Positions 16,796 through 50,971 are shown, counted from the stretch's first letter. The stretch is 64,000 nucleotides of DNA from an uncultured Bacilli bacterium (GCA_934130375.1 CAKOXW010000001.1:136067-200066), one strand, 5' to 3'. Program-made: numbers and translations. The notes: generated from the letters alone by a model not told the origin.

Positions 16796-16816
16796 GTGTA
16801 TTCTTGGGCTTAAGTA
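16796..16816 (+). repeat. Copy of the recurrent 3' motif GTGTATTCTTGGGCTTAAGTA
   Basis: One of five near-identical copies (5538, 16796, 26731, 31717, 49547) following AT-rich terminators. Confidence 0.6.
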
Positions 16817-17045
16817 ATAAAATTTACAAAAATTAAAAAAATTACAAATTTATTAAATTTGTAACTTTTTTATAACTAATTTATTAAATTTGCTTAAACA
16901 GATTTCTAAAATTGTAAGTGTTTTTTACTTTAAAACCTTAAAATTTGCGATTTGACATATATTTTTAAGTTGATATGATGACATTGGAATACTTAACATT
17001 AGGTGATTGCCTTCTTGATTTTTAGTGATGAAGGGAGGTATGTGT

Positions 17046-17114
17046 ATGGTCAAAGATGTAACAGTCTTATTACTTGTAATTATCCTTCTTCTATTTGTGG
17101 TACGCTACTTATAG
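17046..17114 (+). CDS. Putative 22-aa hydrophobic peptide MVKDVTVLLLVIILLLFVVRYL (type I toxin-like / small membrane protein)
   Basis: AAGGGAGG SD 7 nt upstream of the ATG. Single TM-length hydrophobic core. Lies in an otherwise ORF-free 520-bp intergenic region. Followed by hairpin cctaatc-ataag-gattagg (17130-17148). Confidence 0.3.
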   Translation: MVKDVTVLLLVIILLLFVVRYL

Positions 17115-17313
17115 TTGAAATAAAAAAATTACCTAATCATAAGGATTAGGCATTTCTCATTTATGGGCAACACCTAATACCAGGTTAAGTGTTCCTTTTA
17201 TATTTTATGAAGAATCTCTTCATGTATTCATGATAGCACATTTTTTAATATAAATCAATTGATTAAAGAATTATTTTAGTGTATACTTTATGTATAGTAG
17301 AAAGGGTGAAATA

Positions 17314-18633
17314 ATGAAGAAGAAAAATGGGTTTACTTTGGTTGAATTACTAGCAGTAATAGTAATACTCGCAATTATCTTAGTTATTGCGGTACCTAAA
17401 ATTACTGACACAATAAAAAATTCAAAGATTGCATCATTTGAGAGTAGTGCGAAAACTATTGCTGCGCAAGCAGAAAAGAAGAAAATGGAGAAAGAAATAC
17501 TAGAAGATACTGGAAGTATTAGTTGTAGTGACATTGTTAAATTAAATGATACTGATTATGGTAATTGTAGTATAACTTTCGATGGTAATACTGCTAAGGT
17601 TAGTTTAGTAGGAAAGGGTAAGTTTGAAGGACTATCAGTAATAAATGGTACTAAAGATAATGCAACTGCTGGTGAAGTTAAAATGCCTGAATATGGTAAA
17701 GGAACAACATTTATAAAGGCTTTATATGATAGTGATATATTAAGAAAAACAAATGGGCTTAAGAAAGACAATACAAGTGATGCAAATATAAGGTATGAAG
17801 GAGCAAATCCAAATAACTATGTATCATTTAATGATGAGCTATGGAGAATAATAGGAGTATTTGGTGATAACATTAAGTTAGTTAGAAGTGAACAATTAGG
17901 TAAATTATCGTGGGATAGTTCGGATTATTCAGTTAATATTGGTGATGGAGTAAATGAGTGGAGCCAAGCCGATTTAAAAGAATATTTAAATACAATGTAT
18001 TATGGCGGAACTAGTGTAACATGTTATGGCGGAAGAAGAAATGTAACTACGACATGTCCAAGTGGTAACATAAATTCATCTGCAAAGTCAATGATAAATA
18101 ATTATACTTGGAATACAGGTGCAATAAATTATGATGATACAACAATTGTAAATCAAGAAACATTTGCACTAAATACTGTACCATTTTATAATGCTGAAAG
18201 AGGTTCAGTAACTGGTAAAATATGCACAAGTGGAGATTTCTGTAATGACACAATTGAAAGAAAAACAACATGGCCGGGTTATGTAGCATTACCATATACA
18301 ACTGATTGGGCATATGCAAGTAGTGAGACTGCATGTGCAACTAATATGAAAGATGGTTTTGTTGCTGATACCTTGAATGTTGATAATATGACATGTAAGA
18401 AAAATAACTGGATGCATCATGGTAGTACAGTGAATGAAGGTATGTGGATGCTTTCGCCTGGTGCTTATTCCGTCTATGCTTACTACGTGTGGAGTGTCTC
18501 TGGTTCTGGAAATGTCTACAAAGCTTTTGCGGATATTGCACTTCCCGTTTTCCCATCCGTATATCTAAATACTGAAGTCAAAATAACAAGTGGAAGTGGT
18601 TCAAGTAGTGACCCATATATACTTGGTGTATAG
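17314..18633 (+). CDS. Modular type IV pilin-like protein 1 (prepilin N-terminus + ~110-aa pilin module + ~330-aa Cys/Trp-rich C-terminal module)
   Basis: MKKKNGFTLVELLAVIVILAIIL is a class III signal peptide with G|FTLVE. N-terminal ~110 aa are about 60% identical to the two paralogues at 31967 and 49825. RBS AGAAAGGGTG. Confidence 0.7.
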   Translation: MKKKNGFTLVELLAVIVILAIILVIAVPKITDTIKNSKIASFESSAKTIAAQAEKKKMEKEILEDTGSISCSDIVKLNDTDYGNCSITFDGNTAKVSLVGKGKFEGLSVINGTKDNATAGEVKMPEYGKGTTFIKALYDSDILRKTNGLKKDNTSDANIRYEGANPNNYVSFNDELWRIIGVFGDNIKLVRSEQLGKLSWDSSDYSVNIGDGVNEWSQADLKEYLNTMYYGGTSVTCYGGRRNVTTTCPSGNINSSAKSMINNYTWNTGAINYDDTTIVNQETFALNTVPFYNAERGSVTGKICTSGDFCNDTIERKTTWPGYVALPYTTDWAYASSETACATNMKDGFVADTLNVDNMTCKKNNWMHHGSTVNEGMWMLSPGAYSVYAYYVWSVSGSGNVYKAFADIALPVFPSVYLNTEVKITSGSGSSSDPYILGV

Positions 18634-26731: not shown

Positions 26732-26754
26732 GTGTATTCGTGGGCTTAAATAAT
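26731..26754 (+). repeat. Copy of recurrent 3' motif TGTGTATTCGTGGGCTTAAATAAT
   Basis: Motif family, see 16796. Confidence 0.55.
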
Positions 26755-26876: not shown

Positions 26877-27764
26877 ATGAATTACTATGATGAAATAAAA
26901 AAAGAATTAGTAAATAATGAAATATATAAAAGAGTAAAAGATTATTCAAAGAACAGACATGATTTAAGTACGTATTACAATGTAGGTAAATTATTAAGTG
27001 AGGCAGGTAAGAGTTATGGTGATGGCATTATTAAGGAATATAGTAAAAGACTTACAAATGAATTAGGGAAAGGTTATGGCATTAGTACATTAAAAAATAT
27101 GAGAAAATATTATATATTATCAAAAAGCCAGGCACTGCCTGGCCTTTTGACATGGTCACATTATTGTGAATTGTTTTCAATAAAAAATATAGATGAGATT
27201 AGATATTATATAGATATTTCTATTTCACAAAATTTAAGTTATAGAGAATTAAGAAATAGAATAAAATCAAAAGAATATGAAAGATTAGATAATAAAACAA
27301 AAGAAAAACTAATTAATAAAGAAGATACTATAGTAAGTGATTTTATAAAAGACCCAATTATAATTAATAATAGTTTAAATTATATAGAAATATCGGAAAG
27401 AGTATTAAAGGAATTAATATTAAATGATTTAGATAATTTTCTTAATCAATTAGGTAATGGTTTTTGCTATATTGGTTCTGAATACAAGATTAAGATTGGA
27501 AATACTTATAATTATATAGATATATTACTTTATAACATTGAATTTAATTGTTATGTAGTTGTAGAGTTGAAAGTAACTGAATTAAGAAAAGAGCATATTG
27601 GACAAATTGAAATATATATGAATTATATTGATAAAAATGTAAAAAAAATTGGTATGGATAATACAATTGGTTTAATAATATCTAAGTATAAAAATGAGTA
27701 TATAATTGAATACTCAAGTGATAGTCGTATTAAAGTAACTACTTATTTGATAAAGCAGAATTAA
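26877..27764 (+). CDS. DUF1016 / YhcG-like PD-(D/E)XK nuclease family protein
   Basis: C-terminal GFCYIGSEYKI...YIDILLYNIEFNCYVVVELKVTEL...GQIEIYMNYID matches the YhcG restriction-endonuclease-like core. RBS AAAGGAGGA. Confidence 0.65.
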   Translation: MNYYDEIKKELVNNEIYKRVKDYSKNRHDLSTYYNVGKLLSEAGKSYGDGIIKEYSKRLTNELGKGYGISTLKNMRKYYILSKSQALPGLLTWSHYCELFSIKNIDEIRYYIDISISQNLSYRELRNRIKSKEYERLDNKTKEKLINKEDTIVSDFIKDPIIINNSLNYIEISERVLKELILNDLDNFLNQLGNGFCYIGSEYKIKIGNTYNYIDILLYNIEFNCYVVVELKVTELRKEHIGQIEIYMNYIDKNVKKIGMDNTIGLIISKYKNEYIIEYSSDSRIKVTTYLIKQN

Positions 27765-31697: not shown

Positions 31698-31716
31698 TTT
31701 CTTTATTTTTTTTATA

Positions 31717-32288
31717 ATATGTATTCTTTGACTTAAGTAGTTTATATTATATATTTATAAATTTATATGTTAAAGATTATAAGTTTTATATTATTTTGAA
31801 TACAAGTAACATCCCCTAATAATTAGTTAAAAAGTGGTTGTTTTGATATAAAATGTTAAAACTTTTGTAAATTTTCGTCAAAAATAGACCTAAAAAACGC
31901 CCTCGCCCATTGCCAAATGGGGGGGGGTGTATAGTATAATAACCTTGTATAATAGAGGAGGAAATTATGAAGAAAAAGAAGGGTTTTACTTTAGTAGAAT
32001 TATTAGCAGTAATAGTTATTTTGGCAGTTATACTAATTATTGCAATGCCAAAAATAAGTGATGTAATTAAGAATTCTAAGGAAGCATCATTAGAAACAAC
32101 TGCAAAATTAATAGCAAGTCAGGCAGAAAAGAAATATACTGAAAATCAAGTATTAGATGGTTCAACTACAATAAAATGTAGTGATGTTGCTAAGATAAGT
32201 GATACTGATTATGAAAGTTGTAATATTACTTTTGATAGTAAAGGTAATGCTAAAGTAACAATAGTAGGTAAGGGTAAGTTTGAAGGTT
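31717..32288 (+). repeat. Cassette B: ~570 bp (recurrent 3' motif + leader + promoter + first ~107 codons of pilin-like gene 2), near-identical to 49547-50146
   Basis: Aligned by eye: shared leader ...ttatattattttgaatacaagtaacatcc...gatataaaatgttaaaa...tttgtaaattttcgtcaaaaatag..cgcc..cgcccattgccaaatggggggggg...aggaggaaat and nearly identical N-terminal coding. Confidence 0.7.
31919..31927 (+). repeat. G9 homopolymer between the TTGCCA (31910-31915) and TATAAT (31935-31940) hexamers
   Basis: Counted directly. Spacer is 19 nt. Confidence 0.8.
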
Positions 32289-32875
32289 TACAAGTAGTAG
32301 ATGGAACTAAAGATAGTGCAAAAGCAAGCGCTAAGAAAGAAATTGTTGAAACTGCTGCTAAGTATTTTAGTTATGAAGAAGTGGAAGGCGGTATGTCAAT
32401 AACAGGTTATAATATTGCTGGAGGAACTGATGTAGTAATACCATCACAAATAGATGGTAAGACAGTTGTTGCTATTGGAGATTTGGCATTTACAACAAGA
32501 GGTATTATACCAACACTTACTGCTTATAATAATGATTATAAAGTAAGTTTATTAAGTTATAATTCTAATAATAATTATGTGGTAAAACCGCTTGTAACAG
32601 ATCTTAAAGGTTTAGGAATAACTTCGGTAGTGATACCTAATACAGTAACAAGCATAGGTAATAATGCATTTGCTGATAATAAGTTAACTAATATTACAAT
32701 ACCATCAAGTGTTATTGAAATAAGTCTTGAAGCGTTTTACGGCAATCAAATAAGTTCAATTACATTTCCTGATACACCAATCACTCTTGGCTGTAGAGTA
32801 TTTGCTCGTAATCCAATTTCTGCAGATGAAACTTATAGTTTACCAAGTAATGTTACTTATGTATGTGTAAATTGA
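31967..32875 (+). CDS. Modular type IV pilin-like protein 2 (pilin module + BspA-type leucine-rich-repeat module)
   Basis: MKKKKGFTLVELLAVIVILAVIL prepilin N-terminus. C-terminal repeats ...IPNTVTSIGNNAFADNKLTNITIPSSVIEISLEAFYGN... are typical of BspA-like LRR surface proteins. RBS GGAGGA. Confidence 0.7.
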   Translation: MKKKKGFTLVELLAVIVILAVILIIAMPKISDVIKNSKEASLETTAKLIASQAEKKYTENQVLDGSTTIKCSDVAKISDTDYESCNITFDSKGNAKVTIVGKGKFEGLQVVDGTKDSAKASAKKEIVETAAKYFSYEEVEGGMSITGYNIAGGTDVVIPSQIDGKTVVAIGDLAFTTRGIIPTLTAYNNDYKVSLLSYNSNNNYVVKPLVTDLKGLGITSVVIPNTVTSIGNNAFADNKLTNITIPSSVIEISLEAFYGNQISSITFPDTPITLGCRVFARNPISADETYSLPSNVTYVCVN

Positions 32876-32947
32876 TATTTTAATTTAGATTGTTAAAGAG
32901 ATAGATTTCTATCTTTTTTTCTTGTATAATAATTATGGAGGTAAAGT

Positions 32948-42898: not shown

Positions 42899-42975
42899 GG
42901 CGAGATAGCTCAGCTGGCTAGAGCAATCGGTTCATACCCGATAGGTCAAGAGTTCGAATCTCTTTCTCGCTACCA
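42899..42975 (+). tRNA. tRNA-Met (elongator type, anticodon CAT)
   Basis: 77-nt cloverleaf GGCGAGA...TCTCGCTACCA with anticodon loop TTCATAC and T-loop GTTCGAATC. TTGCAA-17-TATAAT promoter upstream. Closely resembles elongator tRNA-Met of Bacillus. Confidence 0.9.
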
Positions 42976-49546: not shown

Positions 49547-50146
49547 ATATGTATTCTTGGGCTTTATTAGTTTATATTACATTTATAAAAGAATTACAAA
49601 AAAGTAATTCTTTTAAACTTATATATTAAAGATTATATAGTTTTATATTATTTTGAATACAAGTAACATCCAGTTAAAAATAGCTAAAAAGTAGTTATTT
49701 GATATAAAATGTTAAAAACTTTGTAAATTTTCGTCAAAAATAGGCCTGAAAAACGCCTCCGCCCATTGCCAAATGGGGGGGGGTGTTATGCTATAATAAT
49801 TACATAAAATAGAGGAGGAAATTTATGAAGAAAAAGAAGGGTTTTACTTTAGTGGAATTATTAGCAGTAATAGTTATTTTGGCAGTTATACTAATTATTG
49901 CAATGCCAAAAATAAGTGATGTAATTAAGAATTCTAAAGAAGCATCATTAGAAACAACTGCAAAGTTAATAGCAAGTCAAGCAGAGAAGAAATATACTGA
50001 AAATCAAGTATTAGATGGTAGTAGTACAATAAAATGTAGTGATGTTGCTAAGATAAATGATGCTGACTATGAAAGTTGTAATATTACTTTTGATGATAAG
50101 GGTAATGCAAAAGTATCAATAGTAGGTAAGGGTAAGTTTGAAGGTA
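49547..50146 (+). repeat. Cassette C: ~600 bp near-identical to cassette B (31717-32288)
   Basis: See cassette B. Encoded N-termini differ at only a handful of residues over ~107 aa. Confidence 0.7.
49775..49783 (+). repeat. G9 homopolymer between TTGCCA (49766-49771) and TATAAT (49792-49797)
   Basis: Counted directly. Spacer is 20 nt. Confidence 0.8.
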
Positions 50147-50898
50147 TGGCTGTATGCAATGCTAATAAGAATAGTGCATCTATATCTAGTGATTGTTCAA
50201 CAAATGCATCTTATTTTACATATGAGGACACTACTATAGTAACTAACGTTATTGTTGAAGATGCGAATAAGTGCAAGAGTTATATTCAAACAAAGCATTT
50301 AACTGAAGAACAAGCAACAACGTTGTGTACTGAAGGTTCAATAACAATTGGTGAATCTACTGGTTCGTTAAAAGATTTAGTTGTAGTTGGTGCGATACCA
50401 TCAAGTGATTATGAGACAGTAGGATTAAGAATAGAAACAAAAGATGGTATATCAATAACTGGTTATAATATAGAAGGAGGAACTGATGTAGTAATACCAT
50501 CACAAATAGATGGCAAGACAGTTGTTGCTATTGGAGATAATACAAGTGATGGTCTAGGAATAACTTCAGTGGTAATACCAAATTCAGTGACAAGCATAGG
50601 TATGAATGCATTTAGATGGAACAAATTAACAAATGTAACAATTCCATCAAGTGTTAAAACAATAGGTCATAGTGCATTTAGAGGGAACAAATTAACAAAT
50701 GTAACAATTCCTAGTAGTGTTATTTCAATAGATTACTATGCTTTTAATAGTAATCCAAATATTGTAATTACCAATAATTCGAGTATTGAAAATACACAAG
50801 ATGTTTGGGATAAAATTTTAGGAATAGACGGGTCATGTTCTCCGAAAGTAACTATAACAAATAATATTATTGAAATAGGTGTGGGACCTAATTGCTAA
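49825..50898 (+). CDS. Modular type IV pilin-like protein 3 (pilin module + Cys-containing linker + BspA-type LRR module)
   Basis: Same prepilin N-terminus. Shares internal blocks SITGYNIEGGTDVVIPSQIDGKTVVAIGD and GLGITSVVIPNSVTSIG with protein 2 (mosaic). LRR-type repeats NKLTNVTIPSSV. Confidence 0.7.
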   Translation: MKKKKGFTLVELLAVIVILAVILIIAMPKISDVIKNSKEASLETTAKLIASQAEKKYTENQVLDGSSTIKCSDVAKINDADYESCNITFDDKGNAKVSIVGKGKFEGMAVCNANKNSASISSDCSTNASYFTYEDTTIVTNVIVEDANKCKSYIQTKHLTEEQATTLCTEGSITIGESTGSLKDLVVVGAIPSSDYETVGLRIETKDGISITGYNIEGGTDVVIPSQIDGKTVVAIGDNTSDGLGITSVVIPNSVTSIGMNAFRWNKLTNVTIPSSVKTIGHSAFRGNKLTNVTIPSSVISIDYYAFNSNPNIVITNNSSIENTQDVWDKILGIDGSCSPKVTITNNIIEIGVGPNC

Positions 50899-50971
50899 AG
50901 TGAGTAATAAATCTCACTTTTTAAATTGATATTAATAATTTAAAATGGTATAATATTGTTGGGTGGTAAAG

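Follow-up and report, generated by a model that had tools for sequence, protein, structure and literature searches.

We propose that the uninterrupted run of nine guanines (G9) upstream of gene 3, which encodes a pilin-like LRR protein in an uncultured gut Bacillota, is a hypermutable repeat in the spacer of a self-contained adhesin cassette's promoter, and that slippage in the run tunes this promoter, making it a contingency promoter; we put the probability of this reading at roughly 55%. The analysis covered a 64-kb stretch of DNA (the window) together with related loci from other assemblies, denoted by L numbers. The placement of the tract, its specificity to the promoter, its conservation, its polymorphism and the existence of short alleles at spacers of 16-17 nt all fit promoter-spacer slippage as judged from sequence comparison, while a conserved hairpin that includes the G run suggests that it may have a further or different role and is weighed below.

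The tract lies between a -35-like hexamer and a perfect -10 box, the best -35 and -10 matches flanking the tract of this monocistronic gene (Table 1). AAT (49772-49774) joins the -35 to the G run and TGTTATGC (49784-49791) separates the run from TATAAT, giving a spacer of 20 nt and a start codon at 49825, so that the original prediction of a ttgcca-aat-G9-TATAAT arrangement at 49766-49797 with a 20-nt spacer was correct to the base. At nine uninterrupted units, the run falls within the size of slippage-prone repeats (about 7 or more). The sequence TATGCTATAAT at gene 3 fits TRTGnTATAAT, which we take to be the Gram-positive extended -10 (the '-16 region'). Across the family, the tract is always found between TTGYCA and a perfect TATAAT, 25-27 nt 5' of the ATG, the -35 being TTGYCA in nearly all members. 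TTGYCA/TATAAT is the sole hexamer pair with 10-11 of 12 matches that is conserved across the modules, and is probably the active promoter. A standard promoter scan, using spacers of 16-18 nt, called neither the gene 2 nor the gene 3 site because their spacers are too long.

Table 1. Features of the gene 3 cassette and of the gene 1 and gene 2 regions used for comparison (window coordinates).
Feature	Position	Strand	Remarks
Gene 1 promoter, TTGATT-17-TATACT	17259-17287	+	No tract; equivalent distance from the RBS; internal comparison
Twin element before gene 2	31898-31940	+	Hairpin 31898-31929; -35 31910-31915; G9 31919-31927; TATAGTATAAT 31930-31940
Gene 2, pilin-like + LRR protein	31967-32875	+	302 aa; own terminator 32897-32920
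Left end of conserved module, TGTATTCTTGGGCTTTATTA	49550-49569	+	Just past the histidine-kinase stop; opens every upstream module of the family
Perfect AT-rich 11-bp hairpin, AAAAGAATTAC-AAAAAA-GTAATTCTTTT	49587-49614	+	Terminator-like; 26-nt insertion; gene 3 locus only, absent at gene 2
G+C-rich hairpin	49754-49785	+	5' arm CGCCTCCGCCCATT, loop GCCA, 3' arm AATGGGGGGGGGTG; sense strand
TTGCCA, -35-like hexamer	49766-49771	+	5/6 matches to TTGACA
G9 homopolymer	49775-49783	+	Uninterrupted; proposed slippage-prone tract
TATGC-TATAAT	49787-49797	+	TRTGn extended -10 and perfect -10 (TATAAT 49792-49797)
Shine-Dalgarno, GGAGG	49814-49818	+	6 nt 5' of the gene 3 ATG
Gene 3, pilin-like (N_methyl) + BspA-type LRR protein	49825-50898	+	357 aa; Pfam; AF2 model
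Gene 3 intrinsic terminator, AGTGAG-TAATAAAT-CTCACTTTTT	50899-50922	+	

A twin of this element precedes gene 2, where TTGCCA, AAT and G9 are followed by TGTATAG and TATAAT (31935-31940), with a spacer of 19 nt and the ATG at 31967. The upstream regions of the two genes share 88% identity over about 270 nt, and the coding sequences are near-identical for their first ~330 nt. The two promoter contexts had been described as identical; they are in fact homologous, and three differences separate them. One base is added in gene 3 directly after the tract, yielding TATGCTATAAT with its TRTGn extended -10, whereas gene 2 reads TATAGTATAAT; the stretch between the -10 and the RBS also differs, and the AT-rich hairpin is inserted at gene 3 only. 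The same AT-rich hairpin was observed in the orthologous locus L001 (2767-2793), with the stem kept and the loop GCTTT instead of AAAAAA. As paralogues, the gene 2 and gene 3 copies do not count as two independent occurrences of the tract, and the evidential weight lies in the retention of the tract across many diverged loci rather than in a second copy within the window. Gene 1 (ATG at 17314) lacks the tract upstream, as had been claimed, and has an ordinary promoter with a 17-nt spacer in its place; the gene-1-type relatives at L012:5177 and in L026 are also without a tract.

In the mechanism that we propose, the G9 tract is set in the spacer of a sigma-A-type promoter, within a cassette consisting of the upstream module, the pilin-LRR gene and a terminator. 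Slipped-strand mispairing during replication would add or remove guanines, in keeping with the length differences seen between assemblies, and the length of the tract would set both the distance and the rotational phase between the -35 and the -10, as follows from geometry, so that promoter strength would change heritably and reversibly. At 20 nt, the gene 3 spacer exceeds the 16-18 nt over which the two boxes cooperate, so we predict that the -35 is not in register, leaving gene 3 at G9 with a basal or low expression driven by the TRTGnTATAAT extended -10 alone. Contraction to G7-G5 (spacers of 18-16 nt) would then engage the -35 and raise gene 3 expression. With several cassettes, a mixed population of cells displaying different LRR adhesins could arise. 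The modal G9 gives spacers of 19-20 nt, which predicts a default low state and not a length maintained for activity.

The two loci in the window would not be equivalent switches, as gene 2 (19 nt, no extended -10) reaches 18 nt by losing one base, whereas two or three deletions from G9 are needed at gene 3 for a spacer of 18-17 nt. Since an extended -10 should lessen the dependence on the -35 and on the spacer, the change at gene 3 is expected to be graded, between a basal and a -35-assisted level, and a clean ON/OFF response is predicted to be less likely there than at gene 2. The same property counts against promoter-spacer slippage, as the extended -10 may leave gene 3 largely independent of the -35, and the overlapping -10-like boxes within the TATAGTATAAT of most relatives could buffer changes in length. 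We observed that TATAGTATAAT, at gene 2 and at most related loci, holds three overlapping -10-like hexamers, TATAGT, TAGTAT and TATAAT, so different tract lengths could register different -10 boxes; at G9, TAGTAT sits 16-17 nt from the -35 in these loci. The presence of MutS (Pfam) implies that slippage rates may be modest.

The G run is highly specific to these promoters. With a G+C content of ~26%, the window contains no other runs of G or C of six or more in its 64 kb than the two G9 runs, and the only G8 words are at the two promoter tracts, where shuffled sequence would be expected to yield 0.06 such words. The related loci, 385 kb in total, contain 24 G/C runs of seven or more, every one of them inside the promoter module. 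As a control, we used ~120 unrelated AT-rich pilin genes, which were the other matches of the generic GFTLVEL-coding pattern GGTTTTACTTTAGTDGAATTA in a metagenome search, and only 1 of them had a G/C run of six or more within 170 nt upstream. That pattern was too generic to collect the family and returned one family member (L056) and one gene-1-type locus (L026). A search of genome contigs with CCATTGYCAAATGGGN{4,20}TATAATAA gave only a chance match in a Thiomargarita MAG, and a search of viral contigs gave 35 chance matches, mostly apparently coding, none with a tract or promoter downstream. Looking for exact copies of the NusB protein encoded in the window gave no match.

The module that carries the tract spans 190-290 nt, from TGTATTCTTGGGCTTAAGTAGTTTAT just past the preceding gene to the RBS, and was found at no fewer than six housekeeping intergenic sites (NusB-ppa, HK-RR, gatB-GGDEF, pgsA-recA, OGG-spore permease and one in L012). 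The motif TGTATTCTTGGGCTTAAGTA occurs at 16797-16816, 26733-26752, 31720-31739 and 49550-49569, just past the preceding gene, and forms the left edge of every pilin-LRR cassette. One copy of the motif lies 5' of a YhcG/DUF1016 nuclease-like gene (26877-27764) and another some 500 nt ahead of gene 1; the motif may bound the cassette or be recognised by a regulator.

The tract could also be a neutral passenger of a duplicated and gene-converted module, held near G9 by mutational equilibrium and without effect on expression. The two window copies are paralogous, at 88% identity, and the 5' part of the family appears to convert: between the window and the orthologous locus L001, 33 of about 87 differences fall within 49600-49999. 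This clustering suggests a conversion patch over the promoter and the 5' coding region, and hence, from the sequences compared, possible gene conversion between paralogues at the gene 3 promoter and 5' region. The promoter-proximal sequence of L001 is of the gene 2 type. A passive tract would also agree with the invariance of the gene 3 locus at G9, and the spacer could be irrelevant given the extended -10. Against this, the persistence of an uninterrupted G9 is highly improbable at 26% G+C and with an A/T-biased composition, yet the run is kept at six or more loci with diverged flanks, and decay is evidently possible, since interrupted or short alleles exist but are rare (3/28). The placement of the run between the hexamers is invariant as well, and an effect on promoter geometry would be hard to avoid. 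We therefore regard a purely passive tract as quite improbable.

Variation in tract length was assessed in a census of 28 assembled promoters. G9 was found in 20 of them, comprising the window and most loci, with spacers of 19 or 20 nt. Other forms were G8 in two promoters (L005 and L011, spacer 19) and, in one promoter each, G10 (L002, spacer 20), G7 (L171, spacer 17), G5 (L056, spacer 16, sharing the TRTGn form of gene 3), GGGTGG (L177, spacer 16) and the interrupted GGGAGGGGG (L012, spacer 19). The three short alleles, L056, L177 and L171, place the two hexamers at optimal distances of 16, 16 and 17 nt, which supports a genuine promoter made up of TTGYCA and TATAAT; among promoters of the main type, the census includes no 17-18 nt state. 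In L012, a G-to-A interruption locks the spacer at 19 nt, and the gene is intact. With G9 dominant at both 19- and 20-nt spacers, what is conserved appears to be neither the spacing nor an ON length. In Campylobacter, G9 is the commonest length of poly-G tracts, with insertion and deletion biases that converge near it, making a mutational attractor plausible here as well.

In L004-L007, four samples with the same protein that are 6-12 SNPs apart over 5.2 kb and otherwise 99.8% identical, the tract, at G8 or G9, accounts for the sole indel. Strains with identical MutS have G7, G9 or GGGTGG at the gene 2 locus, along with different pilin alleles. The two copies may switch independently and so allow combinatorial expression, as originally proposed; the sole contig holding both loci has G9 at gene 2 and at gene 3. 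The original prediction that the tract is switchable is partly supported by its position in the promoter and by length polymorphism at related loci, but the gene 3 locus itself had G9 in all seven assemblies (the window, L001 and L181-L185). We rejected a sequencing artefact, since several independent studies yielded long contigs that contain the tract in their interior. A T run just 3' of the NusB stop differs as T7 versus T8 between L171 and L174 (4794-4830), the same pair that has G7 and G9 in the tract. Variation is thus not confined to the tract among homopolymers, and a baseline is needed; noise in consensus calling or assembly could account for part of the length differences between assemblies.

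The G run is also part of a G+C-rich hairpin, in which the -35 hexamer fills the loop and the last two bases of the stem. The 5' arm consists of ACR, a 9-nt pyrimidine-rich block and ATT, and the 3' arm of AAT, G9 and TGT; since this 5' block has a constant length of 9 nt, G9 is the one tract length at which the arms align. The gene 3 hairpin has a dG of -13.4 kcal/mol as DNA (z -3.5) and of -24.9 as RNA (z -3.7), the gene 2 hairpin has a DNA z of -3.9, and the fold was found in all tract-bearing variants (RNA dG -16 to -25 kcal/mol, z -2.1 to -5.1). Its conservation suggests that the G run may have another or additional role, and the hairpin could be an RNA read-through insulator, a palindrome for a regulator at the -35 or a structure with an influence on slippage. 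We weigh it as the principal alternative, or complement, to a model based on the spacer alone.

Taken as the functional unit, the hairpin would leave the G run as just its 3' arm, with G9 the selected length and the polymorphism incidental, and would act as an RNA insulator, pause or stability element for read-through from the housekeeping gene that lies upstream in the same orientation, or as a regulator's palindromic operator (CCCATT-N4-AATGGG) on the -35. Such a role would account for the fixed register at G9, for the constant 5' block, whose substitutions are mostly C/T exchanges that retain the pairing with G, for a modal G9 whatever the spacer length, and for the gene of the same orientation that precedes every cassette. 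Good folding is confined to the sense strand, the minus strand doing no better than shuffles, which is more RNA-like than duplex-DNA-like. However, the stem has no U tract and the terminator scan finds nothing, G8 versus G9 shifts the stability of the stem by only about 3 kcal/mol, and L177 and L056 have lost most of the hairpin and retained the promoter boxes and the gene start. With a 3' arm made up entirely of G, no two-sided compensatory change is possible, and covariation cannot be shown. A functional hairpin is in any case compatible with a promoter switch and does not exclude it, and we consider it unlikely, if still a serious contender, that the hairpin by itself explains the G run.

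A combination of the two could be a set-point switch, in which the 9-nt pyrimidine arm serves as a length reference for hairpin-templated (quasi-palindrome) lagging-strand correction back to G9, and/or the RNA hairpin insulates the promoter from read-through. The default state would be low, with rare contractions turning on one adhesin at a time and the staggered -10 boxes of TATAGTATAAT giving several levels. We offer this scheme as speculation, to which we lend little credence.

The tract could also act in the RNA if transcription started upstream in the module, with its length altering the frame of a leader peptide or a premature terminator, as in the pil1 pilus of Streptococcus gallolyticus. 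An ATG abuts the G run and opens a mini-ORF, ATG-GGG-GGG-GGT-GTT-ATG-CTA-TAA (49773-49796), whose frame is set by tract length, and a stable stem-loop takes in the tract; a terminator stem-loop controlled by an SSR is known for a Firmicute pilus, according to a passage in PMC7911514 that cites it. But the mini-ORF is without a Shine-Dalgarno or other ribosome-binding site, no U tract lies 3' of the stem, no upstream promoter is conserved across the modules and no Rfam family reaches threshold there. We rejected leader-peptide attenuation of the pil1 kind on these grounds and hold any attenuation-type switch to be highly improbable.

Several other readings were rejected. An intrinsic terminator on the plus strand has a stem, but the tail is TGTTATGCTATAAT with no U/T tract, and the scan was negative; on the minus strand, a T run follows the stem only in window-type modules, and folding does not exceed that of shuffled sequences. 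For an inverton, the search gave only imperfect, AT-rich inverted repeats (at most 92% complementary, 10-27 nt), with no recombinase among the neighbours. A match to the Rfam sRNA SpF66 scored 24.6 bits against a gathering threshold of 42 and left 130 of the 239 model positions as deletions; it was driven by the hairpin, and three related loci did not show it. Inspection by eye led us to reject sigma-54 and other positions for the -35.

The gene downstream of the tract had been predicted to encode a pilin-like LRR adhesin, and the domain content bears this out. Genes 2 and 3 both encode a prokaryotic N-terminal methylation motif and a BspA-type LRR_5 domain (Pfam). For gene 3, PF07963 matched with E=3e-8, and the protein combines the class III signal peptide G|FTLVE with a long hydrophobic helix at its N-terminus. 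Its AlphaFold (AF2) model, with a mean pLDDT of 82, shows a 55-residue N-terminal helix (9-63), a small sheet and a C-terminal LRR, which matches T. pallidum TpLRR, several gut-bacterial LRR surface proteins and the pneumococcal PcpA. Going by the model, the regulated product is probably of the surface or host-interaction type. A terminator directly follows each gene, and the units are therefore monocistronic; the gene 3 cassette has a terminator on either side, one upstream and one belonging to the gene.

Otherwise the window carries core housekeeping genes, for NusA, IF-2, a GyrB-family topoisomerase subunit, MutS, NusB and DnaE. No prepilin peptidase or pilus assembly machinery was found among the scanned window ORFs, and ComK lies near one relative of the cassette. 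A tRNA gene at 42899-42972 is the only Rfam match of the window at the gathering threshold. Upstream of gene 1, a small ORF (17040-17114) with a strong Shine-Dalgarno (GAAGGGAGG) encodes a 24-aa hydrophobic peptide, MCMVKDVTVLLLVIILLLFVVRYL, and is followed by a hairpin; the peptide could be a small membrane peptide or type I toxin-like. The MutS relative that is 98% identical is labelled 'MAG: Tenericutes bacterium', and the histidine-kinase relative, at 58%, 'Bacilli bacterium'. The lineage is abundant in Hadza metagenomes, and its MAGs are labelled 'Tenericutes/Bacilli bacterium' at NCBI. Related loci with the same cassette family encode sporulation genes. Databases contain more than 5,800 relatives of the pilin-LRR family, almost all of them in assemblies of gut metagenomes.

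Strain variation was most visible at the NusB-ppa site (31698-32947 of the window compared with L171-L180 and L188-L191), which is hypervariable among strains with identical MutS. Behind the same module, pilin-LRR alleles of 302, 353, 394+ and 449+ aa were found, and internal deletions leave only the left part of the module and the 3' end of the gene. Clean empty sites were seen in L178 and L189, and an IS (rve transposase) insertion in L180. Allele replacement, deletion, IS insertion and empty sites are typical of contingency loci, to which these cassettes may by analogy belong. Four short-read contigs (L186, L187, L190 and L191) stop within the upstream module or the conserved 5' coding region. 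Such ends fit a module that is repeated across the genome and interrupts assembly, and MAGs therefore probably under-represent the states of the tract; there appear to be several such cassettes per genome.

Switches of this kind are well known in other bacteria. In Neisseria meningitidis, porA (poly-G) and opc (poly-C) carry a repeat in the promoter spacer, and a change of one unit leads to high, intermediate or no transcription. TA repeats between the -35 and the -10 of Haemophilus influenzae hifA/B alter transcription by unit changes, as cited in a passage of PMC7911514. The tract described here is likewise within the -35/-10 spacer, but the common lengths in porA, opc and hif straddle the 17-nt optimum, whereas here the modal state is 19-20 nt and only rare short alleles are near-optimal. 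The vlp genes of Mycoplasma hyorhinis form a multigene family of variable surface proteins in which each gene has a homopolymer in its promoter, giving combinatorial ON/OFF expression. This is the phylogenetically nearest precedent (Mollicutes, within Bacilli), and the homopolymer promoter of each gene is a shared trait; the vlp tract is poly-A and precedes clustered lipoprotein genes, whereas here poly-G precedes pilin-like LRR genes in cassettes scattered among housekeeping genes.

In the gut commensal Bifidobacterium breve, replication slippage in a G tract controls the production of a sortase pilus (PMC9187656). That tract is intragenic and acts by frameshift on sortase-dependent pili, while ours is in a promoter. 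Functionally closest are the paralogous fimbrial genes fim2, fim3, fimX and fimN of Bordetella pertussis and B. bronchiseptica, in which the length of a promoter 'C-stretch' differs between strains and affects transcript level, and whose relatives include interrupted, 'locked' tracts (PMC1891110). In both systems, paralogous pilus genes have a G:C homopolymer that separates the -10 from a recognition site further upstream. At C7-C22, the tracts of Bordetella are longer; they belong to a Gram-negative pathogen, and their promoters need the BvgA activator and a 'fim box', whereas the promoters described here have a recognisable -35, no known activator and a tract that doubles as a hairpin arm, and drive type IV pilin-like LRR fusions of an uncultured gut Bacillota, with no sequence homology. 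None of the compared systems is homologous to the pilin-LRR cassettes, and a literature search found no paper describing this family or its promoters. What we propose is therefore a known kind of switch, promoter-spacer slippage, in a new lineage and gene family, with a hairpin added.

Promoter slippage has been documented mainly in mucosal pathogens and mycoplasmas, and attention in gut commensals has gone mostly to invertible promoters. If the tract is functional, a prevalent uncultured lineage of human-gut Bacillota would diversify its surface through slippage in promoter homopolymers. The scattered cassettes, polymorphic for presence and absence, would be markers of rapid strain diversification, and since the states of such switches could be read directly from metagenomic reads, they would provide a handle on strain-level adhesin expression in vivo.
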